From assembly GCF_041886205.1 (NCBI RefSeq), contig NZ_CP169029.1: 64,000 nucleotides of DNA, one strand, 5' to 3'. The notes beneath the pieces are model-generated. The model ran no database searches and had not been told where the DNA came from. It saw only the letters and a program-made list of their open reading frames with translations. Shown here piece by piece: positions 4,427-58,336 of this stretch (within the stretch, counting starts at the first letter, position 1; each line of letters begins with the position of its first letter). The stretch comes from Escherichia coli. Lineage in GTDB: Bacteria; Pseudomonadota; Gammaproteobacteria; Enterobacterales; Enterobacteriaceae. The translations under genes and the position numbers were made by a program.

Positions 4427-4852
4427 AAGCTGTGTGACGAAGTAACCACTCTTAACAGCATAACCAATTTTTTACGTACGTAAACCACTAAATGATATTT
4501 GCGAGAATGCTACCGAGTATTGAAAACACCACTACAAATACATAAGCAAATCTCAACAAATAACCAACAAATAATTTCCAGCGTTATTTTTAGCTGGTTT
4601 AAATTGAACCTTCAAATTATAGAGCACTTATAAATAACAGCCATTAATATAAATTGGCTAATAGATTTATTTTTATTCAGCCAAGAGCCATGAATAGGAT
4701 TCGATAGAAAAAGTTCAGATAAAAATAGAGATCTACTTCACAAATCAAATGAGAAACCAAAACTTACATCTTGAAATAATCACATTGATTAGATGAATAT
4801 TTATCGCGCAGTGACATCATTTTTTAATAATAGTTCAAAAAAAGGGCTCACG

Positions 4853-5935
4853 ATGAAAAAATTAACAGTGGCAATTTCTGCTGTAGCTGCATCAGTACTG
4901 ATGGCGATGTCTGCTCAGGCAGCTGAAATTTATAATAAAGACAGTAACAAGCTGGATCTGTACGGGAAAGTTAATGCTAAGCACTACTTCTCCTCTAATG
5001 ATGCAGATGATGGTGATACTACTTATGCCCGTCTTGGCTTCAAAGGTGAAACCCAAATCAACGATCAACTGACTGGTTTCGGTCAGTGGGAATATGAATT
5101 CAAAGGCAACCGCGCTGAATCTCAAGGTTCCTCCAAAGATAAAACCCGTCTTGCCTTCGCTGGCCTGAAATTCGGTGACTACGGCTCCATCGATTATGGC
5201 CGTAACTACGGTGTAGCATACGATATTGGTGCATGGACCGACGTTCTGCCAGAATTCGGTGGCGATACCTGGACCCAAACAGATGTATTCATGACTGGTC
5301 GCACCACAGGTGTTGCAACTTATCGTAACAATGACTTCTTTGGTCTGGTTGATGGTCTGAACTTTGCTGCTCAGTATCAGGGTAAAAATGACCGCACTGA
5401 CGTAACTGAAGCTAATGGTGATGGTTTCGGTTTCTCCACTACTTATGAGTATGAAGGATTCGGTGTAGGTGCAACCTATGCTAAATCTGACCGCACTAAT
5501 AATCAGGTTATCTACGGTAACAACAGCCTGAATGCATCTGGTCAAAATGCTGAAGTATGGGCAGCTGGTCTGAAATATGATGCGAACAACATCTATCTGG
5601 CTACCACCTATTCTGAAACCCAGAACATGACTGTTTTTGGTAATAACCATATTGCCAACAAAGCACAAAACTTCGAAGTAGTTGCACAATATCAGTTCGA
5701 CTTCGGTCTGCGTCCGTCCGTTGCTTACCTGCAATCTAAAGGAAAAGACTTGGGTGCGTGGGGTGATCAGGACCTGGTTGAATATATTGATGTAGGTGCA
5801 ACCTATTACTTCAACAAAAATATGTCCACTTTTGTTGATTACAAAATCAACCTGATTGATAAGAGCGATTTCACGAAAGCATCTGGCGTTGCTACCGATG
5901 ATATCGTTGCTGTAGGTATGGTTTACCAGTTCTAA
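4853..5935 (+). CDS. nmpC: Outer-membrane general porin of the OmpC/OmpF/NmpC (phage Lc) family; appears intact
   Basis: [23 protein letters not shown] signal peptide, C-terminal …VGMVYQF, typical porin composition. Sits between Q and S on the opposite strand, as in DLP12 and PA-2. Confidence 0.8.
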
Positions 5936-7951: not shown

Positions 7952-8274
7952 ATGACTAAAAATACTCGTTTTTCCCCCGAAGTCCGTCAACGGGCAGTCC
8001 GTATGGTTCTGGAAAGTCAGAGCGAATATGACTCACAATGGGCGACAATTTGTTCCATTGCTCCAAAGATTGGCTGTACGCCGGAGACTCTGCGTGTCTG
8101 GGTTCGCCAGCATGAGCGGGATACCGGGGGCGGTGATGGAGGGCTCACCACCGCTGAACGTCAGCGTCTGAAAGAGCTGGAACGTGAAAATCGTGAACTG
8201 CGCCGCAGTAACGATATCCTTCGCCAGGCTTCCGCTTATTTTGCGAAGGCGGAGTTCGACCGCCTCTGGAAAAA

Positions 8275-8278
<4 letters not shown>
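7952..8278 (+). CDS. IS3-family transposase OrfA (HTH + leucine zipper)
   Basis: [60 protein letters not shown]…. Confidence 0.85.
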
Positions 8279-9166
<888 letters not shown>

Positions 9167-9270: not shown

Positions 9271-9558
9271 TTACCGCGATGTAATTTTATGCCGTCTTGT
9301 GGGAGGTTCACGCTTCACCTCCGCAGAGGCCAAACGCTGGATGCAAAAAATCGCAGGTGCATTTCTGCATCTGTGAATGGAGAAGATAGGTTGGTTTGTA
9401 TGTGCGCATAACCCCAAATCTTCATACGTTACGGTATCAAGGTAATAATCACTATTTACCTTTAGCCATTCAGTAATAAGCCTTCTCTGGCGGTTTAATG
9501 AATCACCAGACATCTGACCTGGTGATGAAAATCGCATATATGCTATGGCTTTTTTCAT
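9271..9558 (-). pseudogene. 5' fragment of a serine recombinase / resolvase gene (DLP12 YbcK-like)
   Basis: First ~50 aa (MKKAIAYMRFSSPGQMSGDSLNRQRRLITEWL…) look like a resolvase catalytic N-terminus; the rest is non-homologous and overlaps the ybcN start, implying a deletion junction. Confidence 0.5.
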
Positions 9559-9813
9559 GGTGACACCTGCTAAAGTATGCTTTTATAAACCTTAGTGGTG
9601 AGATATGATTTTTGTTTAATTTTTATTTAAAAAGACAATTAAGGTCACATTATCTTGAATATACAACAATAATCGCATTGCAATTTTCTTACACCATAAT
9701 CCTGAAAGCACAAAAGAATGAATAAAAACTAAAGACATTAACAAAAAGCATAAAACGAGGCCCATATAAATATACGAACCTCCATATTTTAGTCGTTTAA
9801 AAACAAATTATTT

Positions 9814-10146
9814 TTAATGTGGTGTGCTTCGTGACAATAAATTAATAACCAACACACCGGCACAAATCAACATCATGCCTATAATGGCTGGCAGGTCCAA
9901 CCGTTGGCCGAAAAATCCCCATGATAGTAAGCTAATCAGGACAATACCGACTCCTGACCAGATAGCATAAGCAATCCCTGTAGGAATATAAGCCAGCGTC
10001 TGAGCTAATAACCAGAATGATGCACAATAACAAATAATTGTACCAACAGATGGCCATAACCGTGTAAAACCTTCTGAAAACTTCATTAAGGTTGTACCAA
10101 TGACCTCTGCAAGTATTGCACCACCAAGATAAATATAAGGATTCAT
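9814..10146 (-). CDS. emrE: Small multidrug resistance efflux protein EmrE (110 aa)
   Basis: MNPYIYLGGAILAEVIGTTLMKFSEGFTRLWPSVGTIICYCASFWLLAQTLAYIPTGIAYAIWSGVGIVLISLLSWGFFGQRLDLPAIIGMMLICAGVLVINLLSRSTPH; the ORF track starts 18 codons upstream. Confidence 0.9.
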   Translation of the reverse strand: MNPYIYLGGAILAEVIGTTLMKFSEGFTRLWPSVGTIICYCASFWLLAQTLAYIPTGIAYAIWSGVGIVLISLLSWGFFGQRLDLPAIIGMMLICAGVLVINLLSRSTPH

Positions 10147-10213
10147 AGCATATTCTTTCCTGTTCAAACTGGAGAGAATTGTACTACAGTTTGAACTCAA
10201 CTCACCTGTTTCA

Positions 10214-10516
10214 TCATTGTGTACCCATTGATGTTCTTTTATATACCCTCAATACCCGTTTCATCGCGGCACTCTGGCGACACTCCTTAAAAATCAAATT
10301 CGTGCTCACCTTTCCTTCCCATTCTTCTCTGGTAGCGAACCGATAATACACCGTTCGCCAGACCTTACCATCAACGACCAGGATTCCTGCCCGCGCCATT
10401 TTAGCCGCAGCCTGATTTATGCTGGTTACCGTTGCGCCTGTTACCGCGGCAACGTCCTGCGCACAGAATTTCTTATGAGTCCCCAGGTAATGAATAATTG
10501 CCTCTTTGCCCGTCAT
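10214..10516 (-). CDS. ren: Lambda Ren-like protein
   Basis: MTGKEAIIHYLGTHKKFCAQDVAAVTGATVTSINQAAAKMARAGILVVDGKVWRTVYYRFATREEWEGKVSTNLIFKECRQSAAMKRVL…. Confidence 0.8.
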   Translation of the reverse strand: MTGKEAIIHYLGTHKKFCAQDVAAVTGATVTSINQAAAKMARAGILVVDGKVWRTVYYRFATREEWEGKVSTNLIFKECRQSAAMKRVLRVYKRTSMGTQ

Positions 10517-10901
10517 ACCCTTGCTCCTTTCAGCCCAAACTTAGCTTTGATTTCTGCGATCTTCGCCAGAGCCTGTGCACGATTTAGAGGTCTACCGCCC
10601 ATGACAGGAAGTTGTTTTACTGGTTCAGGTATAGCCTCACCACGGTTAATTCGCGCGGTCATACAGGCCAGTTCATCGGCAGCCTTGCGCCGTAATTCCG
10701 CGTCAGTCAACGCATTGGCCCGCATGTTCTGGTAGCCAGGCTCGCCGGGAAAGTTGCCAGTAACTGGCTGAACACACCATTGATGATCTGCGCTACCAGC
10801 TGTACCTGCGGCTTTTCGTCGTACTGTTCCGGCATGTTATTGGCGATCCGACGCATCTGCTCACGGTCAAAGTTAACCATCTGTGCGGCGATGTTTTTCA
10901 T
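10513..10901 (-). pseudogene. P: Replication protein P with an internal out-of-frame deletion
   Basis: N-terminal fragment MKNIAAQMVNFDREQMRRIANNMPEQYDEKPQVQ…ATFPASLA (10707-10901) and C-terminal fragment …YQNMRANALTDAELRRKAADEL…AKFGLKGARV (10513-10725) lie in different frames, joined near 10730. Confidence 0.75.
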
Positions 10902-11425
10902 AAATCCACCCCATAAATCCAGTCAGTGTTTGTCAGGTCGAGTTTTGATTTTCCGGCTGTCACGCCAGCCTGTTGCTTGTTACGGTTGATTTCGAGTTGG
11001 GTCCACTTGTCGCGGAGTTTGGCCGGACATAGCACGTTACCGGACCAGAAGTTGTCCTGGCATGCCCAGCGGAACAGCACGCACATGTCGCGGTGGTTAC
11101 GTCCGTCACGTTCACGCATCAGGCGGATATCGTTAGCCCACCCTGCAAAATTCGGTTTTCTGGCTGATGGCGCGATGGTCTTCACCATGTCAAACATCCA
11201 CTCTGCGGCGGTCAGGTCTTCTGCTGTCCCCCACTTGCTGCCGCTCTGAATTGCAGCATCCGGTTTCACCACAGGAAGATCGTTTTCTGGCTGGTCAGAG
11301 GATTCGTCAGAATTCTCGGACGAAAAAGGTTTTATATTGTCTTTTGTTAGTTTGTCTTTTGTGTTTACCTGATTCGGGTAAACGCCTTTAATCGAACAAG
11401 ACCCGTTAGTAACTATCGACATCAT
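10898..11425 (-). pseudogene. O: C-terminal remnant of replication initiator O; N-terminal domain and ori are absent
   Basis: …KDNIKPFSSENSDESSDQPENDLPVVKPDAAIQSGSKWGTAEDLTAAEWMFDMVKTIAPSARKPNFAGWANDIRLMRERDGRNHRDMCVLFRWACQDNFWSGNVL… matches the lambda O C-terminal domain. Upstream sequence is from the left arm (ea22 3' end), so the gene is truncated at a deletion junction. Confidence 0.75.
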
Positions 11426-11716
11426 TACGCATCGCTATTACGGGGTTGGAGGTCAATGGGTTCAGGATGCAGGTGAGTATCTGCATATGATGTCTGACGC
11501 TGGCATTCGCATCAAAGGAGAGTGAGATCGGTTTTGTAAAAGATAACGCTTGTGAAAATGCTGAATTTCGCGTCGTCTTCACAGCGATGCCAGAGTCTGT
11601 AGTGTCAGATGATGACCGTACTCAAACATCGGGTTGAGTATTATCTTACTGTTTCTTTACATAAACATTGCTGATACCGTTTAGCTGAAACGACATACAT
11701 TGCAAGGAGTTTATAA

Positions 11717-11998
11717 ATGAGTATCAATGAGTTAGAGTCTGAGCAAAAAGATTGGGCGTTATCAATGTTGTGCAGATCCGGTGTCTTGTCTCCATGCAGA
11801 CATCACGAAGGTGTTTATGTAGATGAAGGTATAGATATAGAGTCGGCATACAAATATTCCATGAAGGTTTATAAGTCTAATGAAGACAAATCCCCATTCT
11901 GCAATGTGCGAGAAATGACTGATACCGTGCAAAATTATTATCACGAGTACGGTGGAAACGATACTTGCCCTCTCTGTACAAAACATATAGATGATTAA
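11717..11998 (+). CDS. ea8.5: Lambda Ea8.5 protein (93 aa)
   Basis: MSINELESEQKDWALSMLCRSGVLSPCRHHEGVYVDEGIDIESAYKYSMKVYKSNEDKSPFCNVREMTDTVQNYYHEYGGNDTCPLCTKHIDD; correct spacing relative to xis/int. Confidence 0.85.
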   Translation: MSINELESEQKDWALSMLCRSGVLSPCRHHEGVYVDEGIDIESAYKYSMKVYKSNEDKSPFCNVREMTDTVQNYYHEYGGNDTCPLCTKHIDD

Positions 11999-12293
11999 AC
12001 CCAATATTACATAACAATCCTCGCACTCGCGGGGATTTATTTTATCTGAACTCGCTACGGCGGGTTTTGTTTTATGGAGATGATAAATGCACTTCCGAGT
12101 CACAGGAGAATGGAATGGAGAGCCATTCAACAGAGTTATCGAAGCGGAGAACATCAACGACTGCTACGACCACTGGATGATATGGGCGCAGATAGCACAT
12201 GCAGACATAACCAATATTCGAATTGAAGAACTGAAAGAACACCAAGCCGCCTGATGGCGGTTTTTTCTTGCGTGTAATTGCGGAGACTTTGCG

Positions 12294-12512
12294 ATGTACT
12301 TGACACTTCAGGAGTGGAACGCTCGCCAGCGACGCCCAAGAAGCCTTGAAACAGTTCGTCGATGGGTGCGCGAATGCAAGATATTCCCTCCTCCGGTTAA
12401 GGATGGAAGAGAATATCTGTTCCACGAATCAGCGGTAAAGGTTGACTTAAATCGACCAGTAACAGGTAGCCTTTTGAAGAGGATCAGAAATGGGAAGAAG
12501 GCGAAGTCATGA
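12294..12512 (+). CDS. xis: Excisionase Xis (72 aa)
   Basis: MYLTLQEWNARQRRPRSLETVRRWVRECKIFPPPVKDGREYLFHESAVKVDLNRPVTGSLLKRIRNGKKAKS; overlaps the int start as in lambda. Confidence 0.95.
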   Translation: MYLTLQEWNARQRRPRSLETVRRWVRECKIFPPPVKDGREYLFHESAVKVDLNRPVTGSLLKRIRNGKKAKS

Positions 12513-13560
12513 GCGCCGGGATTTACCCCCTAACCTTTATATAAGAAACAATGGATATTACTGCTACAGGGACCCAAGGACGGGTAAAGAGTTTGGATTA
12601 GGCAGAGACAGGCGAATCGCAATCACTGAAGCCATACAGGCCAACATTGAGTTATTTTCAGGACACAAACACAAGCCTCTGACAGCGAGAATCAACAGTG
12701 ATAATTCCGTTACGTTACATTCATGGCTTGATCGCTACGAAAAAATCCTGGCCAGCAGAGGAATCAAGCAGAAGACACTCATAAATTACATGAGCAAAAT
12801 TAAAGCAATAAGGAGGGGGCTGCCTGATGCTCCACTTGAAGACATCACCACAAAAGAAATTGCGGCAATGCTCAATGGATACATAGACGAGGGCAAGGCG
12901 GCGTCAGCCAACTTAATCAGATCAACACTGAGCGATGCATTCCGAGAGGCAATAGCTGAAGGCCATATAACAACAAACCCTGTCGCTGCCACTCGCGCAG
13001 CAAAATCAGAGGTAAGGAGATCAAGACTTACGGCTGACGAATACCTGAAAATTTATCAAGCAGCAGAATCATCACCATGTTGGCTCAGACTTGCAATGGA
13101 ACTGGCTGTTGTTACCGGGCAACGAGTTGGTGATTTATGCGAAATGAAGTGGTCTGATATCGTAGATGGATATCTTTATGTCGAGCAAAGCAAAACAGGC
13201 GTAAAAATTGCCATCCCAACAACATTGCATGTTGATGCTCTCGGGATATCAATGAAGGAAACACTTGATAAATGCAAAGAGATTCTTGGCGGAGAAACCA
13301 TAATTGCATCTACTCGTCGTGAACCGCTTTCATCCGGCACAGTATCAAGGTATTTTATGCGCGCACGAAAAGCATCAGGTCTTTCCTTCGAAGGGGATCC
13401 GCCTACCTTTCACGAGTTGCGCAGTTTGTCTGCAAGACTCTATGAGAAGCAGATAAGCGATAAGTTTGCTCAACATCTTCTCGGGCATAAGTCGGACACC
13501 ATGGCATCACAGTATCGTGATGACAGAGGCAGGGAGTGGGACAAAATTGAAATCAAATAA
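12490..13560 (+). CDS. int: Lambda-type tyrosine integrase Int (356 aa), apparently intact
   Basis: MGRRRSHERRDLPPNLYIRNNGYYCYRDPRTGKEFGLGRDRRIAITEAIQANIELFSGHKHKPL… with C-terminal …HELRSLSARLYEKQISDKFAQHLLGHKSDTMASQYRDDRGREWDKIEIK. Confidence 0.95.
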   Translation: MGRRRSHERRDLPPNLYIRNNGYYCYRDPRTGKEFGLGRDRRIAITEAIQANIELFSGHKHKPLTARINSDNSVTLHSWLDRYEKILASRGIKQKTLINYMSKIKAIRRGLPDAPLEDITTKEIAAMLNGYIDEGKAASANLIRSTLSDAFREAIAEGHITTNPVAATRAAKSEVRRSRLTADEYLKIYQAAESSPCWLRLAMELAVVTGQRVGDLCEMKWSDIVDGYLYVEQSKTGVKIAIPTTLHVDALGISMKETLDKCKEILGGETIIASTRREPLSSGTVSRYFMRARKASGLSFEGDPPTFHELRSLSARLYEKQISDKFAQHLLGHKSDTMASQYRDDRGREWDKIEIK

Positions 13561-13660
13561 TGATTTTATTTTGACTGATAGTGACCTGTTCGTTGCAACA
13601 AATTGATAAGCAATGCTTTTTTATAATGCCAACTTAGTATAAAAAAGCAGGCTTCAACGG
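13561..13660. other. attL prophage-host junction: phage P' arm (13561-13633), 15-bp core (13634-13648), bacterial arm
   Basis: …GTTGCAACAAATTGATAAGCAATGCTTTTTTATAATGCCAAC TTAGTATAAAAAAGC AGGCTTCA…; the sequence left of the core is the lambda attP arm, the sequence right of it runs into the ybhC upstream region. Confidence 0.9.
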
Positions 13661-13694
13661 ATTCATTTTTCTATTTCATAGCCCGGAGCAACCT

Positions 13695-14978
13695 GTGAAT
13701 ACATTTTCAGTTTCCCGTCTGGCGCTGGCATTGGCTTTTGGCGTGACGCTGACCGCCTGTAGCTCAACCCCGCCCGATCAACGTCCTTCTGATCAAACCG
13801 CGCCTGGTACCTCTTCTCGCCCGATTCTGTCGGCAAAAGAAGCGCAGAATTTCGATGCTCAACACTATTTTGCATCCCTGACACCAGGTGCTGCAGCGTG
13901 GAATCCTTCCCCGATTACCCTGCCTGCGCAACCTGACTTTGTTGTCGGCCCGGCGGGCACTCAAGGTGTAACGCATACCACGATTCAGGCGGCGGTAGAT
14001 GCGGCAATTATCAAGCGTACCAACAAGCGCCAGTATATTGCCGTGATGCCTGGTGAGTATCAGGGAACGGTATATGTCCCTGCCGCTCCGGGTGGAATTA
14101 CTCTGTACGGTACAGGTGAAAAACCGATTGATGTGAAGATTGGGCTTTCCCTTGATGGTGGCATGAGCCCTGCCGACTGGCGTCACGACGTCAACCCGCG
14201 CGGCAAATATATGCCAGGTAAACCAGCGTGGTATATGTACGATAGCTGCCAGAGCAAACGCAGCGACAGTATCGGTGTTCTCTGCTCTGCGGTCTTCTGG
14301 TCACAAAACAATGGCCTGCAACTGCAAAATCTGACCATCGAAAACACGCTGGGCGATAGCGTAGATGCAGGTAACCATCCGGCGGTGGCACTGCGTACTG
14401 ATGGTGACCAGGTACAGATTAACAACGTTAACATTCTCGGTCGTCAGAACACCTTCTTTGTCACCAACAGCGGTGTGCAGAACCGTCTGGAAACGAATCG
14501 TCAGCCGCGTACGCTGGTGACCAACAGCTACATTGAAGGGGATGTGGATATCGTTTCTGGTCGCGGCGCAGTGGTGTTCGATAACACCGAATTCCGCGTG
14601 GTGAACTCACGTACTCAGCAAGAAGCGTATGTGTTTGCACCGGCTACGCTGTCCAACATTTACTACGGTTTCCTCGCCGTAAACAGCCGTTTCAATGCTT
14701 TCGGTGATGGTGTGGCGCAACTGGGCCGCTCGCTGGATGTTGATGCCAATACCAACGGTCAGGTGGTGATCCGTGATAGCGCCATCAACGAAGGTTTTAA
14801 CACGGCTAAACCGTGGGCCGATGCGGTGATCTCTAATCGTCCGTTTGCGGGTAATACCGGCAGCGTAGATGATAACGACGAAATACAGCGCAATCTGAAT
14901 GACACTAACTACAACCGCATGTGGGAATACAATAACCGCGGCGTGGGCAGCAAAGTGGTTGCAGAGGCGAAGAAGTAA
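13695..14978 (+). CDS. ybhC: Outer-membrane lipoprotein YbhC (pectinesterase-like acyl-CoA thioesterase family)
   Basis: Lipoprotein signal (…LTLTACSS), 427 aa. Confidence 0.85.
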   Translation: MNTFSVSRLALALAFGVTLTACSSTPPDQRPSDQTAPGTSSRPILSAKEAQNFDAQHYFASLTPGAAAWNPSPITLPAQPDFVVGPAGTQGVTHTTIQAAVDAAIIKRTNKRQYIAVMPGEYQGTVYVPAAPGGITLYGTGEKPIDVKIGLSLDGGMSPADWRHDVNPRGKYMPGKPAWYMYDSCQSKRSDSIGVLCSAVFWSQNNGLQLQNLTIENTLGDSVDAGNHPAVALRTDGDQVQINNVNILGRQNTFFVTNSGVQNRLETNRQPRTLVTNSYIEGDVDIVSGRGAVVFDNTEFRVVNSRTQQEAYVFAPATLSNIYYGFLAVNSRFNAFGDGVAQLGRSLDVDANTNGQVVIRDSAINEGFNTAKPWADAVISNRPFAGNTGSVDDNDEIQRNLNDTNYNRMWEYNNRGVGSKVVAEAKK

Positions 14979-14993
14979 GAGCTATTAACTATT

Positions 14994-15112
<119 letters not shown>

Positions 15113-15118
15113 CGCTTT

Positions 15119-17380
15119 TTACATCTGACGGTTTTTATTGAAGTTAATCAAACTACCCGCCTTGATAATCTCGCGCTCTTCAGCAGTCAGACTTTCCATA
15201 TAGAGCGTAATCTCCGTTACCGGCGCATCTTCATGGATCACATAACCTTTAAACGTCGTACCCGGATTATCCAGCGCCGCTTTAATGCCAGGGATGTAAA
15301 TGTAATCCCCCACTTCAAAGGTTGGCGCTTCCGCCATCTGCAGCGGTAACATCCCCCAGTTGATGACGTTAGAACGGTAGCGTTTAGTCGCGTACTCCTC
15401 GGCAATATTCGCCAGACCGCCAATCACACGCTGGCAGCTCGCCGCCTGTTCACGCGCAGAACCATCGCCTGGTTTCACCGCATAGACCATGCTGCCAATT
15501 TCAGTTTGCAGCGGATCAATATGCTCCTGACCAGCAATCTGCTTAATGCGCGCAAACACCTCTGTCAGCTCGCTGACATTCCCCGCCAGACGCTGATTTT
15601 CCAGCTCAGCAGTCGCTTTACTTCTGCCAACATAACCGGGATCGCGGCGAGACAGGGTAAACTCCGCCAGACCAATCGGATTTGAACGATAAGAAGAGGT
15701 TTCACCGGAAGGAATCAGTTCGTCGGTGGTGGTCACTTCGTCGAGGATCTTCGAGCACACTTTGAGGACGATATTGTCAGTCAGCGCACCCAATTCCGGC
15801 CAGTCTTTAATGTTCGGTCCGTAAATCAGCGGTTGCTGAGTTGCCCCTTTCACAAAGCCCTGATAAACACGGTTTTTATACGGCGTTACATCGAAGGCGT
15901 ACTCCGGCACGTTGTCCCAGCAATCAAGTTCGCTGGCAGAAGTTAAATAGCCACCGTTTGCCGCAGTCGCAGCGATAGAACGAGCGTCCATCAACGCCAC
16001 CGCTGACATCTGCCCATTGGCTGGCTTAGAGCCTTCGCGATTCGGGAAGTTACGCGTGGTGTGGCGAATACTCAAACCGTTGTTGATTGGCGTATCGCCC
16101 GCGCCAAAGCATGGGCCGCAGAACGCGGTTCTGATGATTGCGCCTGCGCCAATCAAATCTGCTACCACACCTTTTTTGGCGAGATCCATAAACACCGGCT
16201 GTGATGACGGGTAAACCGCTAACGAGAAGGTGTCATTGCCACAGGATTGACCGCGCAGTGCGTTCGCCGCCGCGATGACGTTTTCGTAGTTACCGCCAGA
16301 ACAGCCCGCGATAATCCCCTGCTGCACTTTCAGGCGACCATTTTCTACTTTATCCAGCAGCGAGAGTTTGGCTTTACCGTGCGCCACGCGTTCGGACTCA
16401 ATTTCAATCTCACGCAGAATGTCGATCAGGTTCTGGTTCAGTGTGTCGATTTCATACACGTTGCTCGGATGGAACGGCAGCGCAATCATTGGTTTGATGG
16501 CGCTTAAATCAACGCTGATGCAACCATCGTAGTACGCCATCGGTTGTGGATTAAGCTGGCAATAATCCTGGCCGCGACCGTGCAGCGCCAGCCAGTTATG
16601 CACTTCTTCATCGGTTTGCCAGACAGAACTTAAACAGGTCGTTTCAGTGGTCATAACGTCAACGCTGTTACGGAAATCGGTAGAGAGCGCAGCAACACCG
16701 GGTCCTACGAATTCCATCACTTTGTTTTTGACGTAGCCGTTTTTGAACACGGCACCGATGATAGCCAGCGCCACATCCTGCGGCCCCACATACGGCGCTG
16801 GTTTTCCGGTCAGATGCACCGCAACCACGCCCGGATAGTCGATATCCCAGGTGTCATTCAGCAGCTGTTTTACCAACTCACCGCCGCCCTCACCGACTGC
16901 CATTGTCCCTAATGCACCGTAACGGGTGTGGCTGTCTGACCCGAGGATCATTTTGCCGCCGCCTGCCATCATCTCACGCATATATTGATGGATGACCGCA
17001 ATGTGCGGAGGCACAAAAATACCGCCATAACGCTGAGCCGCCGATAAACCAAAAACATGGTCATCACCGTTAATGGTGCCACCGACGGCGCAAAGTGAGT
17101 TATGGCAGTTGGTCAGCACATACGGCAGCGGGAAACGTTCCATACCGGACGCTTTAGCGGTCTGTACAATACCAACAAAGGTAATATCGTGAGAGGCTAA
17201 TGAATCAAACTTAATTTTAAGTTTATCCATATTTCCGGACGTATTATGAGAAGAGAGAATAGACCAGGCAATAGTGCCTTTTTGGGCTTCTTCTTTTTTA
17301 ATTTGGCCGGTGAAATGTTCTTCGGCAATTATTTCGTTATTACTGGCGAGAAACACGCCTTTTTCAGATAACTTGATCAT
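15119..17380 (-). CDS. ybhJ: Aconitase-family putative hydratase YbhJ
   Basis: 753-aa product starting [18 protein letters not shown]…; the ORF track begins 8 codons upstream. Confidence 0.8.
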
Positions 17381-17429
17381 TAAATGCTCCAGATATCTGC
17401 GCACCGTGAAGTGCGCAGAAAGATAATAA

Positions 17430-17560
17430 ATGGATATACTCTAAATAATTCGAGTTGCAGGAAGGCGACAAGCGAGTGAATCCCCAGGAGCTTACATAAG
17501 TAAGTGACTGGGGTGAGCGAACGCAGACGCAGCACATGCAACTTGAAGTATGACGAGTAT
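17430..17560. repeat. ERIC/IRU element between ybhI and ybhJ
   Basis: Contains GTGAATCCCCAGGAGCTTACAT and AAGTAAGTGACTGGGGTGAGCG, the classic ERIC core segments. Confidence 0.85.
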
Positions 17561-17562
17561 AT

Positions 17563-18996
17563 TTACAGCATGTTCCAGCCGATCAGCATATTCCACCACC
17601 ATACGCCGAGGGTGATATGCACCAGGAAGGTTAATATCGTCAGTACCGCACCGACCAACCACCAGGATTTAATATCGTTGTAACCCACGCCAAAGATGAC
17701 CGGACCTGCCGCGCCGCCATAATGAGTAACCATGCCGCCATAGGAGTTGGAGAACAACAGTGCCAGCGCGGTTAACATTAACGGTGCGCCGGAGACGTTC
17801 GCCAGCATGGCAAATACCGGTAACATAGCAACGATATAGGCACTACCGGAAGCGAAGAAATAACGCACGATGATGCTGAGGAAAATAATAACGAAGAAAG
17901 CAACGTTACCGTGACCATCAAATGCCAGGTTATTTTTAAAGACTTCAGCTAACCATTCGAAAAATTTAACTTTCGATAATAAGGAGCTTAAGCCGATAAT
18001 ACCGCCGTACCAGATTAAGGTATTCCAGCCGCCTTTATTTTTAACCACGTCTTCCCAGGTAACGATACCCAGCAGCAGCATGGTCGCCATAACAACGATT
18101 GCCACAGTGGATTCATCAACCCCCAGAGACTTACTGAAAATCCAGCCCAGTAGCGCCAGCACAAAGACACCGAGCAGCATTTTTTCGCGGATTTTCATCG
18201 GTCCCAGTTCGGCAAGGCCCGCTTTGGCGATGGTTTTGTTATCCACCTTCTTAATTTCTGGCGGATACATGGTATAAATCACCAGCGGGGTGACCAGCAG
18301 CATAATGATGCCCGGCAATCCGGCGGCCAGTGCCCATCCACCCCAGCTAATTTGCAGGTGCAGAATGTCGTTGATCATTTTCAGCGCCAGAATGTTCCCC
18401 GCCATTGCGGTAAAGAACATATAGCTGGTGGTTTTGGTGACCATGTAAATGGACATCATCAGGTAATGTCCGACACGACGCGGACTTTTTTCCGGTTCGG
18501 ACCCCAAAGCCACCGCCACGCTGTTGATGATCGGTAACACAATGCCGCCCGCACGCGCGGTGTTAGACGGTGTTGCCGGAGCCAGTACCAGATCGAGGAA
18601 TACCGTAACGTAACCCAGACCCAGCGTGGTGTTACCGATTTTACCAATCAGCAGATAGGCAATACGTTTACCTAAACCGGTGGTCACAAATGCGGCGCTT
18701 AAGGTAAACGCCGAGAACACCAGCCAGGTAGTACCTGAAGAGTAACCGCTTAATACGGCGGTGGTCTTAAACGCACCGTCGGATAAGTTACCGACCACCA
18801 CCATTGAGGCAGCAACGGCAATTAACAGTACGACAGGTTCCGGGAAAGGCTTGATAACCAGACCCACAATGGCCGCCAGGTAAATACCAAAAAGCACCCA
18901 CGCCAGTTCGCTTAATCCTGCCGGAGCTGGCATAAAACCAATAATACATGGGATCGCTAATATCAGAATTAGCTTCCATAACGATTTCTTATTCAT
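17563..18996 (-). CDS. ybhI: DASS-family anion (di/tricarboxylate-type) transporter YbhI
   Basis: 477-aa polytopic membrane protein. Confidence 0.8.
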   Translation of the reverse strand: MNKKSLWKLILILAIPCIIGFMPAPAGLSELAWVLFGIYLAAIVGLVIKPFPEPVVLLIAVAASMVVVGNLSDGAFKTTAVLSGYSSGTTWLVFSAFTLSAAFVTTGLGKRIAYLLIGKIGNTTLGLGYVTVFLDLVLAPATPSNTARAGGIVLPIINSVAVALGSEPEKSPRRVGHYLMMSIYMVTKTTSYMFFTAMAGNILALKMINDILHLQISWGGWALAAGLPGIIMLLVTPLVIYTMYPPEIKKVDNKTIAKAGLAELGPMKIREKMLLGVFVLALLGWIFSKSLGVDESTVAIVVMATMLLLGIVTWEDVVKNKGGWNTLIWYGGIIGLSSLLSKVKFFEWLAEVFKNNLAFDGHGNVAFFVIIFLSIIVRYFFASGSAYIVAMLPVFAMLANVSGAPLMLTALALLFSNSYGGMVTHYGGAAGPVIFGVGYNDIKSWWLVGAVLTILTFLVHITLGVWWWNMLIGWNML

Positions 18997-19071
18997 TTAA
19001 AATCCTGTTCTTTCTGTATGACTCATACAGAAGTCCTTTATTGATTGTCCGTATCCTGACAACGAATTTTT

Positions 19072-20124
19072 TCAGGGAAGATAAACTTCACCGGAAAATA
19101 TTTTTCTGGTTGTCCGAATAACAGATGCGCGTAACGTCGTGGCATCCTGACCTTCATTACTTAAATGAACGTCGAGCGCACCACTGGGGTGTTCAATATT
19201 GATATTGCCATATCCTACAGAAGGGACGATTTGTCGGGTGACGGTGCCTTCCAATGCACAACTACTGGAAATAGCAATAGCACCGGTTATCGCCAGCGCG
19301 CGATGGCAAGAATGCGGCATAAAATAACGCACATTAATTGCCCCGCCTTTCTGCGCTGGAGAAATAAGCACAGGTTTAGGGATAACCATATTACTGACAT
19401 CACCTAAGCCCATTGCTTTACCCGCTTGTAGCCGGATAGATTCAATGCGGGCTAATAATGCTTTGTCGGCATCCAGTTCCGCCGGTAATTCATAACCTGT
19501 TTTTCCCAGATATTCAGCCGGAATAATGACGACTGGCATCGCCATATCGATACAGGTCACCGGGACATCGTCAAAATAATCAATCTGATTATCAGTCGGG
19601 AAAACTTTTCCGGTTTTCGTTCCAGCGGCATTCAGGAAAGTGAGCGCAACCGGTGCGGCAGTACCCGGTACGCCGTCAATTCTGGCGCTACCCTCGTACT
19701 CGACAACACCATTTGGCGTTTGCACATCAGCTTCGATGAACGTACCCGTATTGACGTTGCGGATACGTACACGGGTAACTGGCGAAGTCGCTGCAATCAA
19801 ACCATTTTCAATGGCGAATGCCCCTACGCCAGACAGCATATTGCCGCAGTTAGGCGTGGTATCGACACGTTGCTCATGGACGATAACTTGAGCAAACAGA
19901 TAATCGACATCAGCACGCGGATCGCTGGAACGGCTAATAATGGCGACTTTACTGGTCAGTGGATTACCGCCGCCAATACCGTCAATTTCCAGATCGTTAC
20001 CGGAACCCATAATTGCCATCAATATTTTATCGCGCTGCGTTTGATCTTCGGGTAAATGTTCCGCTAACAGGAACGCGCCCCTCGAGGTTCCACCTCGCAT
20101 CATCACGCAGGGTATTTTTTTCAT
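19072..20124 (-). CDS. ybhH: PrpF/AcnD-accessory family isomerase-like protein YbhH
   Basis: 350 aa, MKKIPCVMMRGGTSRGAFL…. Confidence 0.8.
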   Translation of the reverse strand: MKKIPCVMMRGGTSRGAFLLAEHLPEDQTQRDKILMAIMGSGNDLEIDGIGGGNPLTSKVAIISRSSDPRADVDYLFAQVIVHEQRVDTTPNCGNMLSGVGAFAIENGLIAATSPVTRVRIRNVNTGTFIEADVQTPNGVVEYEGSARIDGVPGTAAPVALTFLNAAGTKTGKVFPTDNQIDYFDDVPVTCIDMAMPVVIIPAEYLGKTGYELPAELDADKALLARIESIRLQAGKAMGLGDVSNMVIPKPVLISPAQKGGAINVRYFMPHSCHRALAITGAIAISSSCALEGTVTRQIVPSVGYGNINIEHPSGALDVHLSNEGQDATTLRASVIRTTRKIFSGEVYLP

Positions 20125-20307
20125 AATAATGCCCTCAATTTAAAAACATAACTTATTGCGATATGGTTACATTAAGGACAAAGCATCTCTAATGACTTTA
20201 GCTCAACGATTAATAACTTTTTTTCATTAATTTAAGTTGGCTAAATGCAGTTAAAATTTTTAACGACCAGCCACCCAAAATCATCGCTTCCATTTTCCGG
20301 AGTAATA

Positions 20308-21261
20308 ATGAAGCATGAATTATCAAGTATGAAGGCATTTGTCATACTGGCAGAGTCCAGTTCATTTAACAATGCCGCTAAATTACTCAATATTACGCAA
20401 CCTGCATTAACGCGAAGAATAAAAAAGATGGAGGAAGATTTACATATTCAACTATTTGAGCGTACAACTCGCAAGGTTACGTTAACAAAAGCAGGAAAAA
20501 GGTTGCTCCCGGAGGCGCGGGAATTAATAAAGAAATTCGATGAAACGCTTTTTAATATTCGTGATATGAATGCTTATCATCGTGGTATGGTGACGTTAGC
20601 GTGTATTCCGACCGCAGTATTTTATTTTTTACCGCTGGCAATCGGTAAATTTAATGAGCTGTATCCCAATATTAAAGTGCGGATTCTGGAACAAGGCACG
20701 AATAATTGCATGGAATCGGTGCTGTGTAACGAATCAGACTTTGGCATAAACATGAACAACGTCACAAATTCATCCATTGATTTTACCCCACTGGTCAACG
20801 AGCCATTCGTGCTGGCCTGTCGGCGTGACCATCCATTGGCCAAAAAGCAGCTTGTAGAATGGCAGGAGTTAGTGGGTTACAAAATGATTGGCGTACGTTC
20901 CTCCAGCGGCAACCGATTGTTGATAGAACAACAGCTAGCCGACAAGCCCTGGAAGCTGGACTGGTTTTACGAAGTGCGTCATCTTTCGACGTCATTAGGA
21001 CTAGTGGAGGCAGGACTGGGGATTTCGGCGCTTCCTGGTCTGGCAATGCCCCATGCGCCCTATTCTTCGATTATTGGTATCCCACTGGTGGAACCCGTTA
21101 TACGTCGGACATTGGGGATTATTCGCCGCAAAGATGCCGTGCTTTCTCCGGCAGCTGAACGCTTTTTTGCCTTGCTGATTAATTTGTGGACTGACGATAA
21201 AGACAATTTGTGGACCAATATCGTCGAACGCCAGAGACATGCGTTACAGGAGATAGGTTAA
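20308..21261 (+). CDS. ybhD: LysR-family transcriptional regulator YbhD
   Basis: Start MKHELSSMKAFVILAESSSFNNAAKLLNITQPALTRRIKKMEEDL…, HTH plus LysR substrate domain; the ORF track begins 21 codons upstream. Confidence 0.8.
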   Translation: MKHELSSMKAFVILAESSSFNNAAKLLNITQPALTRRIKKMEEDLHIQLFERTTRKVTLTKAGKRLLPEARELIKKFDETLFNIRDMNAYHRGMVTLACIPTAVFYFLPLAIGKFNELYPNIKVRILEQGTNNCMESVLCNESDFGINMNNVTNSSIDFTPLVNEPFVLACRRDHPLAKKQLVEWQELVGYKMIGVRSSSGNRLLIEQQLADKPWKLDWFYEVRHLSTSLGLVEAGLGISALPGLAMPHAPYSSIIGIPLVEPVIRRTLGIIRRKDAVLSPAAERFFALLINLWTDDKDNLWTNIVERQRHALQEIG

Positions 21262-21301
21262 TACACCGGCGCAGGAGAGACTGCGCCGGTTAAATCAGCG
21301 G

Positions 21302-22333
<1,032 letters not shown>

Positions 22334-22451
22334 CTAAAATTAGTCGCTTTTGGCGGTGAATGCTGAATTAAAACGCAGAATTTTGTCCGATAGTGGTATC
22401 GGTGTACCATTCGCGCAGACGAAAATTCTTAACCTTAATCTGGAATACGCC

Positions 22452-23270
22452 ATGACCACACGCGTGATTGCTCTCGACTTAGACGGCACCTTATTGACCC
22501 CGAAAAAGACCCTGCTTCCTTCATCGATAGAAGCCCTGGCCCGCGCTCGCGAAGCAGGCTATCAATTAATCATCGTCACAGGTCGCCATCACGTCGCTAT
22601 TCATCCTTTTTATCAGGCGCTGGCGCTGGATACACCTGCTATTTGCTGTAATGGCACCTATTTGTATGATTATCATGCAAAAACCGTGCTGGAAGCGGAC
22701 CCAATGCCCGTTATTAAAGCCCTGCAACTCATTGAGATGCTGAATGAACACCACATTCACGGTCTGATGTATGTCGATGATGCAATGGTCTATGAGCACC
22801 CGACCGGGCATGTCATTCGCACATCTAACTGGGCGCAAACCCTGCCGCCGGAACAGCGTCCGACTTTCACACAAGTCGCTTCTCTGGCTGAAACGGCGCA
22901 ACAAGTTAACGCCGTATGGAAGTTCGCCCTGACGCACGATGACCTGCCGCAATTGCAGCATTTTGGTAAGCATGTCGAACATGAACTGGGACTGGAGTGT
23001 GAATGGTCCTGGCACGATCAGGTTGATATTGCACGCGGCGGCAACAGCAAAGGTAAACGTTTGACGAAATGGGTTGAGGCGCAAGGTTGGTCGATGGAAA
23101 ACGTCGTGGCATTCGGCGATAACTTTAATGATATCAGTATGCTGGAAGCCGCTGGTACAGGCGTGGCGATGGGCAACGCCGATGACGCGGTAAAAGCGCG
23201 CGCCAACATTGTGATTGGTGATAACACCACCGACAGCATTGCCCAATTCATTTATAGCCACCTGATTTAA
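22452..23270 (+). CDS. ybhA: HAD-family phosphatase YbhA (Cof-like)
   Basis: Start MTTRVIALDLDGTLLTPKK… (HAD motif I DxDGT), 272 aa; the ORF track begins far upstream at 22350. Confidence 0.85.
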   Translation: MTTRVIALDLDGTLLTPKKTLLPSSIEALARAREAGYQLIIVTGRHHVAIHPFYQALALDTPAICCNGTYLYDYHAKTVLEADPMPVIKALQLIEMLNEHHIHGLMYVDDAMVYEHPTGHVIRTSNWAQTLPPEQRPTFTQVASLAETAQQVNAVWKFALTHDDLPQLQHFGKHVEHELGLECEWSWHDQVDIARGGNSKGKRLTKWVEAQGWSMENVVAFGDNFNDISMLEAAGTGVAMGNADDAVKARANIVIGDNTTDSIAQFIYSHLI

Positions 23271-24329
23271 TCAGGCGGTTATCGACACACTTTTAATTTG
23301 CGCGTACAGCCACAGGCCAGGTTTGATCGCCAGTTCATCCCTGGCCCACGGGCTGATACGCGCCCACAGCGTTTTACCGCCGACTTCCAGTTCCACTTCC
23401 ACCTGGCCGTTGTCGTCATAACTATTAACAACTTTTGCCCGCAATACGTTACGAATGCTGGTTTGCTGCGGCGGTTGTAAAACCAGAGAAACATCGGAAG
23501 CCTGAATGCGGATACGTAGCGCAGCTTGCAGCGGTTCGTCCAGCTTATTGACCCACAAATGCTGATCGCCCAGCGCCAGCGCGGTCATCGCGTAATGCGG
23601 ATGATGCTCAAGCACCGTCACTTTCAGAATGCTACTTTGTTGCTCTTTCGGCAGCCACGGATTCATCACGCTACTGCCCCACACTTCCTCCAGCGCGCCA
23701 AAGGCTTTCACCTGACCGTTTTCCAGTACCATCACTCTGTCTGCCAGATGGAGGATCTCATCCAGCGAATGGCTGACATACAACATCGGAATGTTGATTT
23801 CCCGTGTCAGCCGTTGCAGATAAGGCAACAGTTCGCGTTTACGCGGAATATCCAGTGACGCCAGCGGTTCATCCAGCAACAGCAATTCCGGTGCTGTCAG
23901 CAAAGCCCGACCAATCGCCACGCGCTGTTTTTCGCCTCCGGACAGGCTGCCTGGTAAACGGTCAAGCAACGGTTCAATGCCTAAAAGCGCCACCAGCTTA
24001 TCGAACTGATCGACCATACTTTTCGACATGCCGTAGCGCAGATTGCCACGCACTTTGTAATGCGGGAACAGCCGCGCATCCTGAAAAACATAGCCAACGC
24101 GACGCTTTTCCGGCGTCAGGCAGATACCTTTTTCGGCATCATTTAGTACCCGCCCATTGAGGACAATCCGCCCTTTTTGCGGGCGCGTCAGTCCACTGAT
24201 GGCGTTAATCAGCGAAGTTTTTCCGGCACCGGAGACGCCAAAGATAGCAGTGATGCCATTGGCGGGCAGCGTTTCATTAATAGTCAGGCAATGGTTGCCC
24301 AACGTCTGGGAAAAATTCAGTTCCAGCAT
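23271..24329 (-). CDS. modC: Molybdate ABC transporter ATP-binding subunit
   Basis: Walker [13 protein letters not shown] signature LSGGEKQR, 352 aa. Confidence 0.9.
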
Positions 24330-24331
24330 GA

Positions 24332-25021
24332 TTAGCGCCCCGCCCGTTCACGGCTGATTCTGGCCAGCCATTCTGAAATCAACAGGGAGATCATCGCCAG
24401 CGCAATAGAAATAATGCACAGTCTCGCCGCTCCACTTTCCCCGCCGGGGGTCTGGATCAGGGTATACATGGCAGAAGGAATGGTTCGCGTTTCACCAGGA
24501 ATGTTCGACACAAAGGTGATGGTTGCACCAAACTCACCGAGAGAACGAGCAAAAGCCAGTACCGTACCAACAATAATTCCCGGTAAGGTCAGCGGTAACG
24601 TGATAGTAAAGAAAACGCGCCAGCGCCCGGCCCCCAGTGTTCTTGCGGCCTGTTCCAGTTTGACATCAACCCCTTCCAGCGCCAGACGAATTGCCCGCAC
24701 CATCAGCGGAAACGACATGACGGCGGCAGCGAGAACCGCGCCGCGCCAGCTAAAGGCGAAGGTAATACCAAACCAGTCATACAGACGTTCACCGATAAAT
24801 CCGCGCCGTCCCATCGAAACTAATAATAAGTAACCGACGACCACGGGCGGTAACACCAGCGGTAGATGCAGTACGCTGTCGAGCAGAGCTTTGCCCGGAA
24901 ACGTGCAACGCACCAGTAACCAGGCAAAAAAGATCCCAAACGGCAGGCTAAACAGCACAGCCAGGGAAGAAACTTTCAGGCTTAATAAAACTGCCTGCCA
25001 TTCTGGATCGGTCAGTATCAT
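24332..25021 (-). CDS. modB: Molybdate ABC transporter permease
   Basis: 229-aa membrane protein with permease EAA-type loop. Confidence 0.9.
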
Positions 25022-25794
25022 TACTTGATTGTAAATCCGTAACGTTTAAAGATTTCCGCTGCCTGCGGTCCCTTCAGATAATCATAAAATGCTTTCACTG
25101 TCGCATTGTTATGCCCTTCCACAACAGCAACCGGATATTCCACTTTTTTATGTGAATCTTCCGGGAAGGTGGCAACCACTTTTACCCCTTTGCTGGCAAC
25201 TGCGTCAGAACCGTAGACAATGCCCAGAGGCGCTTCGTTACGTTCGACCAGCGCCAGCGCCCCACGAACATCTTCCGCTGGGGCCAGTTTCGGAGAGAGC
25301 GTATCCCATGCGCCCAGTTTTTGCAGTGCTTCTTTTGCATAAATGCCAGCGGGAACATGTTCCGGATCGCCAACCGCCAGGCGACCGCCATTCAGCAGTG
25401 AAGTCCAGTTGGTTTTGCTGTCGATGGTGAAATCTTTCTGCACGCTGGCTTTCGGTGCTACAACGACCAGGCTATTGCCGAGCAGTGTCTGACGCGTAGC
25501 TGTATCGATCGCTTTTTTATCAACCGCATAATCCATCCATTTCTGATCGGCAGAAATAAACAGATCCGCAGGCGCACCCGCTTCAATCTGACGGGCGAGA
25601 GTAGATGACGAAGCGAAAGAAGAAACCACATCCACGCCTTTCTCTTTTTTAAACTGCGTAGCAATGTCCTGCATTGCGTTAGTCAGTGATGCGGCGGCGA
25701 ACACCGTGATTTTCCCTTCATCTGCCAGTGCATTGCCAGCAACAGCGAAAGAGAGTGCCGCCCCGGCAAACAAGTTCAACCATTTACGAGCCAT
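25021..25794 (-). CDS. modA: Periplasmic molybdate-binding protein
   Basis: 257 aa with signal peptide MARKWLNLFAGAALSFAVAGNALA. Confidence 0.9.
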   Translation of the reverse strand: MARKWLNLFAGAALSFAVAGNALADEGKITVFAAASLTNAMQDIATQFKKEKGVDVVSSFASSSTLARQIEAGAPADLFISADQKWMDYAVDKKAIDTATRQTLLGNSLVVVAPKASVQKDFTIDSKTNWTSLLNGGRLAVGDPEHVPAGIYAKEALQKLGAWDTLSPKLAPAEDVRGALALVERNEAPLGIVYGSDAVASKGVKVVATFPEDSHKKVEYPVAVVEGHNNATVKAFYDYLKGPQAAEIFKRYGFTIK

Positions 25795-39061: not shown

Positions 39062-39137
39062 TTTTACATTGGTGGGTCGTGCAGGATTCGAACCTGCGAC
39101 CAATTGATTAAAAGTCAACTGCTCTACCAACTGAGCT
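39062..39137 (-). tRNA. lysQ: tRNA-Lys (UUU)
   Basis: Reverse complement is GGGTCGTTAGCTCAGTTGGTAGAGCAGTTGACTTTTAATCAATTGGTCGCAGGTTCGAATCCTGCACGACCCACCA; gene name assigned by position in the operon. Confidence 0.95.
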
Positions 39138-39170
39138 AACGACCCCTTGCGGGATTATGCTGCTTTAATC

Positions 39171-39243
39171 ATTCAGGATGGTGGGTCGTGCAGGATGACT
39201 GGACTTCGTCTCGCCCTTCGGGCCGTTGCTAACGCAACGTTAT
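39171..39243. repeat. Inter-tRNA spacer repeat that starts with the 3' 17 nt of tRNA-Lys (copy 1 of 3)
   Basis: TGGTGGGTCGTGCAGGATGACTGGACTTCGTCTCGCCCTTCGGGCCGTTGCTAACGCAACGTTATCCTTCACG. Confidence 0.8.
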
Positions 39244-39269
39244 CCTTCACGTTCTCTACCAGTAACCAC

Positions 39270-39345
39270 CTTTAAATTGGTGGGTCGTGCAGGATTCGAA
39301 CCTGCGACCAATTGATTAAAAGTCAACTGCTCTACCAACTGAGCT
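39270..39345 (-). tRNA. lysZ: tRNA-Lys (UUU)
   Basis: Identical 76-nt tRNA-Lys sequence. Confidence 0.95.
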
Positions 39346-39403
39346 AACGACCCATATGGGTGTTACCTGAAAGATTTCTACTCGGAACCAATCTTTAAAA
39401 TTG

Positions 39404-39464
39404 GTGGCTCGTGCAGGATGACTCGCTTCGCTCGCCCTACGGGCCGTTGCTGGCGTAACGTTAT
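39404..39464. repeat. Inter-tRNA spacer repeat (copy 2 of 3, diverged)
   Basis: TGGTGGCTCGTGCAGGATGACTCGCTTCGCTCGCCCTACGGGCCGTTGCTGGCGTAACGTTATCCTTCACG. Confidence 0.8.
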
Positions 39465-39491
39465 CCTTCACGCTTAACATCTGAGTTTGAT

Positions 39492-39567
39492 GTTAAAACT
39501 GGTGGGTCGTGCAGGATTCGAACCTGCGACCAATTGATTAAAAGTCAACTGCTCTACCAACTGAGCT
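39492..39567 (-). tRNA. lysY: tRNA-Lys (UUU)
   Basis: Identical 76-nt tRNA-Lys sequence. Confidence 0.95.
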
Positions 39568-39570
39568 AAC

Positions 39571-39646
39571 GACCCGAGTGGTGGGTGATGACGGGATCGA
39601 ACCGCCGACCCCCTCCTTGTAAGGGAGGTGCTCTCCCAGCTGAGCT
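39571..39646 (-). tRNA. valZ: tRNA-Val (UAC)
   Basis: Reverse complement is GGGTGATTAGCTCAGCTGGGAGAGCACCTCCCTTACAAGGAGGGGGTCGGCGGTTCGATCCCGTCATCACCCACCA. Confidence 0.95.
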
Positions 39647-39697
39647 AATCACCCGATACTGCGCTGGATACTACAAACTACTTCCACCGAACCCACC

Positions 39698-39773
39698 GTA
39701 ATTAGTGGTGGGTCGTGCAGGATTCGAACCTGCGACCAATTGATTAAAAGTCAACTGCTCTACCAACTGAGCT
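39698..39773 (-). tRNA. lysW: tRNA-Lys (UUU)
   Basis: Identical 76-nt tRNA-Lys sequence. Confidence 0.95.
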
Positions 39774-39775
39774 AA

Positions 39776-39851
39776 CGACCCGGTGGTGGGTGATGACGGG
39801 ATCGAACCGCCGACCCCCTCCTTGTAAGGGAGGTGCTCTCCCAGCTGAGCT
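39776..39851 (-). tRNA. valT: tRNA-Val (UAC)
   Basis: Identical 76-nt tRNA-Val sequence. Confidence 0.95.
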
Positions 39852-39886
39852 AATCACCCAATACTACGCTGGATACTACAACTAAC

Positions 39887-39959: not shown

Positions 39960-39986
39960 CCTTCACGTTTTACTACCGCTTCCACC

Positions 39987-41026: not shown

Positions 41027-41035
41027 GCAATTCTC

Positions 41036-41581
<546 letters not shown>

Positions 41582-56509: not shown

Positions 56510-56512
56510 CAA

Positions 56513-58330: not shown

Positions 58331-58336
58331 ATCGCC

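Follow-up and report, generated by a model that had tools for sequence, protein, structure and literature searches.

Two ERIC elements (IRU, RU-1), and exactly two, were found in the window, which is the whole stretch of 64,000 nucleotides of Escherichia coli DNA that was analyzed. The explanation that best accounts for them, with a probability that we put at roughly 0.87, is that both are MITEs of this family. Copy 1, between ybhI and ybhJ, is an intact element that is almost fixed in the species, and copy 2, between a LysR-family and an RtcB-family gene, would be an old and dispensable passenger of a replaced intergenic spacer that played no part in the acquisition of the surrounding accessory island. 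Both elements are of an already known kind, copy 2 being at most a previously unremarked member of it, and they have little importance beyond their correct annotation. The new information consists of the exact boundaries of both copies, of a naturally occurring empty site by which the TA target of copy 1 is confirmed, and of a modular map of the cydA-sucD interval, in which the ERIC-bearing spacer marks one minority configuration (150/5426 genomes).

Identity and Boundaries of the Two Elements

ERIC is a non-autonomous element (MITE) of the Enterobacteriaceae, an imperfect palindrome of about 127 bp that targets TA and of which shorter and longer variants are known. It is a textbook repeat and the basis of ERIC-PCR typing. 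The family is reportedly known since 1990-91, from the work of Sharples and Lloyd in 1990 and of Hulton and coworkers in 1991, and Wilson and Sharp are said to have treated it later, in 2006. We know of no transposase for ERIC.

The window is reversed in orientation with respect to K-12. The region 16400-18600 was 100% identical to the E. coli strains 6EVA and wlxctx60, and the region 60000-64000 was 100% identical to wlxctx60. The RefSeq annotation of these identical genomes confirmed the genes flanking both elements and their intergenic position, as given in a preliminary description of this DNA, and the refined ends of the two elements (Table 1) fell within about 5 bp of the coordinates proposed there.

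Table 1. Coordinates of the two ERIC elements and of the surrounding features in the window.
Feature	Position	Length	Strand or orientation	Remarks
ybhJ ATG	17380-17378		-	Read from the sequence
ybhI-ybhJ intercistronic gap	17381-17562	182 bp	-	Hosts ERIC copy 1
ERIC copy 1	17435-17561	127 bp	+ (consensus orientation)	Termini TATACTC...GAGTATA; TA on both sides
ybhI stop codon	17565-17563		-	Read from the sequence
Accessory region relative to K-12	about 49543 to beyond the window end (extracted locus 9544-25613)			Starts 376 bp upstream of cydA
Neighbors of copy 2	LysR-family ATG 62949 (-); RtcB-family ATG 63540 (+)		Divergent	RefSeq annotation
LysR-RtcB spacer	62968-63431	464 bp		AT-rich; copy 2 in the middle
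ERIC copy 2	63163-63288	126 bp	+ (consensus orientation)	Termini TATACTC...AAGTATA; TA on both sides

Formal alignment to the ERIC consensus had been suggested as a check. The references used were the E. coli consensus of Wilson & Sharp 2006 and the Salmonella copy SeRU-1, both printed in Table 1a of Delihas 2007 (PMC2759123) and taken as they are quoted in that table. Copy 1 was identical to the quoted E. coli consensus at 113/127 positions (89%) and to SeRU-1 at 119/127 (94%); the corresponding values for copy 2 were 98/127 (77%) and 101/127 (80%). The two elements had been presented as diverged, and this wording holds for copy 2, whereas copy 1 is near canonical. Unlike the E. coli consensus in the form that this table gives, both copies have "Salmonella-like" outer arms (TATACTC.../...GCAGCACATGCAAC).

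The two copies were 85.8% identical to each other over 127 bp. The 20-nt ERIC core, which both had been said to share, had two occurrences in the window, one exact and one with 2 mismatches, versus 0 in 100 shuffles, and no third copy was found in the window when both copies were used as BLAST queries at word size 7. Both copies have the length, the conserved core, the imperfect palindrome, the TATAC...GTATA termini and the TA flanks of the family. The hairpin of ERIC was fully present in copy 1 and partly in copy 2. Both are intergenic, as ERICs are, and multiple dispersed copies per genome were also observed: the BLAST-detectable places matched by ERIC-containing queries had a median of 5-6 and a maximum of 11 per E. 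coli genome. The earlier expectation that both would be ordinary repeats was borne out.

The sites of the primers ERIC1R and ERIC2 were perfect in copy 1 and had 4 and 2 mismatches, respectively, in copy 2, so that the latter would prime poorly in ERIC-PCR. The sequences used, which we take to be those of the standard primers, agreed with the published consensus at 22/22 positions.

Copy 1 Is a Nearly Fixed Element of the ybhI-ybhJ Gap

Copy 1 is a core-genome ERIC that is nearly fixed in E. coli. It is made up of 125 bp of element proper plus a duplicated TA (17435-17436 and 17560-17561), begins 1 nt past the stop codon of ybhI (anion permease in the RefSeq annotation) and ends 54 nt short of the start of ybhJ (hydratase). 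K-12 carries it too, in an intercistronic gap that is annotated with the identical length of 182 bp (ybhI ends at 803320 and ybhJ starts at 803503) and that is identical to the window at 180/182 positions. Of 5426 complete E. coli genomes, at least 5315 had the copy 1 region intact.

A 50-nt query that matches only the uninterrupted ybhI-ybhJ junction was run on the same 5426 genomes, and a single empty allele was obtained (1/5426), in strain GF4-3 (NZ_CP053258.1; positions about 1515-1535 of the extracted locus, equivalent to 17426-17570 of the window). The junction reads ...GAAGGGA-TA-TTTACAG..., the 125-bp element and one TA being precisely absent and a single TA being left. This precise empty site confirms the boundaries of copy 1 and the duplication of its TA target. 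Two substitutions were located at 6 bp or less from the joint and none in the other approximately 155 aligned bases, and the flanking genes of GF4-3 are ordinary E. coli genes, 97.3-98.7% identical to those of the window, as in K-12. The allele could be the product of a precise excision or an ancestral allele that was retained.

A longer element was also considered, given that the left flanks of the two copies match at 7/9 positions (ATAAATGGA versus ATACATGAA). This candidate was rejected because the left-flank bases remain in the empty site of GF4-3; they belong to the target and not to ERIC.

When folded as RNA, the + strand of copy 1 gave the canonical long hairpin, with -52.9 kcal/mol (z = -7.7), and the - strand, which is the mRNA sense, gave -43.2 kcal/mol (z = -6.2). 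Since copy 1 is located between same-strand genes 182 bp apart, co-transcription of ybhI and ybhJ is plausible, and such a message, read from the - strand, would contain the reverse complement of copy 1. The element was inserted at a TA 1 nt past the ybhI stop codon and would be transcribed within the ybhI-ybhJ message, where its RNA hairpin could, by analogy, alter the stability or the processing of the upstream versus the downstream part.

The analogy is with the ERICs of Yersinia (De Gregorio et al., 2005), which, according to the reviews PMC10969869, PMC2229807, and PMC3184786, act on transcript levels by way of an RNase E site in an orientation-dependent manner. In the same reviews, the effect on mRNA is reported for Yersinia ERICs adjacent to a stop codon. 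Copy 1 is like these elements in that it adjoins a stop codon (1 nt), lies between same-strand genes and can be folded as RNA in both orientations, a likeness of position alone. The RNase E-site effect on the decay of upstream mRNA is an observation made in Yersinia, and it would apply to E. coli ERICs by analogy only.

Rfam holds no ERIC family. Copy 1 aligned with the whole model (1-129 of 129) of the Rfam family V_AS5 (RF02818, Vibrio antisense RNA AS5) at 17434-17557 of the window, with 46.9 bits and E = 2.9e-9. This score is below the gathering threshold of 96 bits, and copy 1 is not a member by the Rfam criterion; copy 2 had no match to the model. The alignment suggests that V_AS5 may have been built on transcribed Vibrio copies of ERIC. 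A weak partial match of copy 1 to the Rfam family isrH was obtained as well.

A perfect palindrome with an 8-bp stem, CTGCGCAC-cgtgaa-GTGCGCAG, was noticed at 17396-17417, between copy 1 and the ribosome-binding site of ybhJ. It is kept in K-12 and in GF4-3, and no U-tract follows it.

Copy 2 Lies Inside a Mosaic Island and Not at Its Edge

The preliminary description had placed copy 2 at the edge of the accessory island and had considered that it might be related to how the island was acquired. Comparison with other genomes did not support either idea. In K-12 the order is mngB, 846 bp, and cydA. The accessory content of the window comprises two hypothetical genes, a methylaspartate (glutamate fermentation) cluster, cobO, LysR, and RtcB, the last of which ends at the window-equivalent position 64937. 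The last approximately 530 bp of mngB were 70-87% identical between K-12 and the RtcB-bearing strains, which places the end of the variable region within mngB, past the end of the window. As the accessory region runs past copy 2 and through RtcB into mngB, copy 2 is internal to the island, whose edges lie about 13.6 kb away on the cydA side and about 1.8-2.3 kb away on the mngB side. Copy 2 stands at the joint of the methylaspartate module and the RtcB module, not on a breakpoint.

At least five configurations of the cydA-sucD interval were distinguished: K-12, without the island; the methylaspartate island with RtcB and mngRAB, as in the window; the methylaspartate island with RtcB remnants and without mngRAB, as in O157:H7; and a hut island with RtcB, either with or without mngRAB. 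As judged from these arrangements, the interval is a modular recombination hotspot.

The O157:H7 type (about 980 of 1133 matching genomes) has the methylaspartate island and LysR, and neither mngRAB nor an ERIC. Its LysR gene is followed by a different stretch of 449 bp, then by the RtcB remnants and then by sucD. In the hut type (about 150 genomes), the hut island stands beside RtcB, with or without mngRAB, and once again without an ERIC. Copy 2 was thus absent from the loci of K-12, O157:H7, and both hut types. The check that had been proposed, namely whether copy 2 is present in genomes lacking the island, showed that it is absent from the K-12-type genomes, and it is equally absent from the approximately 980 island-bearing genomes of the O157:H7 type. 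Since copy 2 is missing from about 980 genomes with the island and from about 150 with RtcB, it is needed by neither. It is unsuitable as a marker of the island boundary or as a sign of the arrival of the island.

An 8,843-bp deletion (54310-63152) was found in 6/150 of the genomes that carry the spacer of the window (A25 type, comprising A25, 2012C-4502, and four others). Lost with it are cobO, LysR, the left part of the spacer, and most of the methylaspartate cluster, and the truncated gene of methylaspartate mutase E is joined to a point 10 bp to the left of copy 2, which is followed by RtcB. No clear microhomology was visible at the junction of this deletion.

The Spacer Carrying Copy 2 Looks Like a Derived Replacement

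The 464-bp spacer between LysR and RtcB was present in 150/5426 genomes (144 full and 6 partial matches), all of them with the ERIC and with the same diagnostic substitutions, and was confined to the configuration formed by the methylaspartate island plus RtcB. Homology to the O157-type genomes ends at 62967 and homology to the hut-type genomes begins at 63432, that is, the ends of the spacer are 195 and 143 bp away from copy 2. No homology was detected by local alignment among the spacers of the window type, the O157 type, and the hut type (z = -0.1 to 1.8 versus shuffles). A 24-mer from the right flank, used to search for the source of the spacer, had an exact match neither in 100,044 species-representative genomes nor in metagenome contigs.

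Outside E. coli, the species-representative genomes were scanned with the LysR protein, and 38 loci were obtained. The O157-type spacer was common to E. whittamii and Escherichia sp. E1V33, and a diverged form of it was present in Escherichia sp. MOD1-EC7003, which has the order mngB-RtcB-spacer-LysR with an intact RtcB and no ERIC. Since the ERIC-free spacer is found in other Escherichia species, it looks ancestral in the genus. The 464-bp spacer looks like a derived replacement of this ancestral LysR-RtcB spacer, and from its distribution we infer that it was imported. The replacement, in about 150 E. coli genomes, would have carried copy 2 along as a passenger.

Dispersed ERIC copies were also found at loci of Citrobacter and Buttiauxella, at other places of the island: upstream of a fumarase gene in Citrobacter sp. 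MGH106, and 2.1 kb from LysR in Buttiauxella, the latter being a long ERIC variant with an insert of about 73 bp. Additionally, an ERIC derivative was located in Citrobacter amalonaticus S646 (positions 4797-4921 of the locus), 80 bp upstream of the orthologous LysR, its relative orientation being that of copy 2. The termini of this derivative are those of ERIC, its interior is related to the insert found in the "long" ERICs, and the corresponding site is an empty TA in four sister genomes. The derivative was thus inserted independently into AT-rich DNA upstream of LysR, of the kind that also surrounds copy 2. These ERICs at other sites of the island show ordinary MITE behavior, and such AT-rich intergenic DNA is targeted repeatedly.

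The RtcB of the window is a stand-alone RtcB paralogue of 465 aa. A stretch of 108 bp (63432-63539) accompanies it in every configuration, 93-98% identical, including that of another Escherichia species, and probably contains RtcB's own promoter or leader. An ORF of 63 aa (63344-63535) that overlaps this stretch and abuts RtcB was rejected as a gene and is probably spurious, because it is interrupted by a stop codon in the hut-type allele and by a length change of 1 nt in another allele.

Copy 2 Gives the Picture of an Old and Little Constrained Element

Copy 2 differs from the usual ERICs in being unusually diverged (77% identity to the consensus as quoted in PMC2759123), AT-enriched and weakened in its central stem. 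Furthermore, it occupies a divergent promoter region, in contrast to the usual transcribed 3' or intercistronic position. Its GC content was 38%, and that of the surrounding spacer was 25-31%. There were 18 differences between copy 2 and copy 1, of which 13 were GC to AT and 3 AT to GC.

The fold of copy 2 had -28.5 kcal/mol (z = -2.7), with the outer stems intact. Pairing was scored on an alignment of seven ERIC sequences using the structure of copy 1; over the seven, 88.7% of the cells were paired, versus 25-38% when the partners were slid, and five pairs were changed on both sides. About 8 of the 41 canonical pairs were broken in copy 2, and three were compensated (33:94, 38:90, and 39:89, all GC to AU). 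These three pairs are a hint that some pairing may have been preserved, and they fit poorly with a purely neutral decay.

The diagnostic substitutions of copy 2 were common to five alleles from different lineages, so the wear of the element is older than the divergence of these alleles. Polymorphism among four alleles was 12/126 in copy 2 and 24/465 in the non-coding flanks (p = 0.09). A faster evolution of copy 2 had been indicated by one pairwise comparison, with 11 differences versus 10 in 338 bp of flanks, and was discarded, the contrast over four alleles not being significant at that p value.

No empty allele of copy 2 was found with a modeled empty-site query on the 5426 genomes, which matched filled sites only; the six partial matches were the A25-type deletion genomes, in which the ERIC is present. 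The exact 25-mer of the modeled empty junction was likewise absent from metagenome contigs. Taken together, the sequence features of copy 2 give the picture of an old ERIC that would have drifted toward its AT-rich surroundings under little or no constraint.

Alternative Roles of Copy 2

The preliminary description had also raised a possible relation of copy 2 to the expression of the island. Copy 2 could regulate the divergent LysR/RtcB region in cis, either as a structure in the 5'-UTR of RtcB or as the carrier of a promoter or operator that was recruited when the spacer was replaced, a role that we regard as quite unlikely. Its position between two divergent genes, with the ATG of LysR at a distance of 214 bp and that of RtcB at 252 bp, would suit such a function, and two weak sigma-70-like matches (63108-63149, + strand) would start transcripts just upstream of it. 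Nevertheless, the promoter-like matches numbered 5 versus 3.3 ± 1.6 in shuffles, and neither the promoter nor the terminator scan, whose counts did not exceed those of shuffled sequences, was informative. The intact outer stems and the three compensated inner pairs are compatible with a functional structure, but the energy of the hairpin is about halved with about 8/41 pairs broken, the polymorphism is at least equal to that of the flanks and no Rfam match was obtained for copy 2 at E ≤ 1. Copy 2 was kept in the six A25-type genomes, in which transcription that continues past the truncated methylaspartate operon would cross it into RtcB. Against this, RtcB is intact, with its own conserved 108-bp upstream region and no ERIC, in hut-type E. 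coli and in Escherichia sp. MOD1-EC7003, and LysR and the methylaspartate operon are intact without copy 2 in about 980 genomes. Copy 2 is dispensable for both LysR and RtcB.

The precise loss of copy 1 in GF4-3 with its two junction substitutions, the deletion endpoint 10 bp away from copy 2, and the three pairs compensated in copy 2 could also be read as signs that ERIC hairpins are still actively processed or selected in E. coli, through ongoing excision, hairpin-directed breakage, and structural selection. We give this reading a similarly low probability.

It is still less probable, and very unlikely in our estimation, that the hairpin of copy 2 stimulates breaks, deletions, or recombination at the hotspot and is in this way linked to the gain or the remodeling of the island. 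A role in plasticity has been proposed for ERIC-like repeats in Xenorhabdus (PMC3184786), and the cydA-sucD interval is strongly mosaic, with its five or more configurations. However, the main breakpoints between modules (62967/62968 and 63431/63432) are 195 and 143 bp off, and the outer edges of the island are kilobases away. The 8,843-bp deletion of the six genomes does stop 10 bp short of copy 2 on its left side, but this endpoint represents a single event, and no ERIC or ERIC fragment was found at the other end of the deletion, nor at the K-12, O157, or hut-type junctions. Moreover, most island variants have no ERIC, and these variants look ancestral in the genus.

Finally, a chance or low-complexity resemblance to ERIC, for which only the AT-richness around copy 2 would speak, is excluded by the match of the copies to each other at E = 2.6e-37, their full-length identity of 77-89% to the published consensus as quoted in PMC2759123, the core 20-mer that never appeared in shuffles, the canonical hairpin and the precise TA-flanked empty site of copy 1. 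Both features are ERIC copies.

Comparison With Other Small Repeats and Further Features of the Window

ERIC is described as a MITE with terminal inverted repeats and a TA duplication (PMC2229807, PMC3184786). The Correia/NEMIS, RUP, and REP/BIME elements resemble it as small non-autonomous repeats that form hairpins in transcripts, and TA is likewise found at the ends of Correia and RUP (PMC2229807, Table 1), but none of them has a sequence relationship to the two copies. REP elements, in addition, are GC-rich stem-loops of about 35 bp, in contrast to the full-length ERICs found here.

Matches at the gathering level of Rfam were obtained elsewhere in the window, at 8233-8349, 39073-40070, and 40997-41135. 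The first is an ALIL pseudoknot, which is the frameshift signal of the IS3 family, so an IS element is present in the window. The second corresponds to seven tRNA genes with three RtT-like repeats interspersed among them, and the third is the CpoB/ybgF RNA thermometer.
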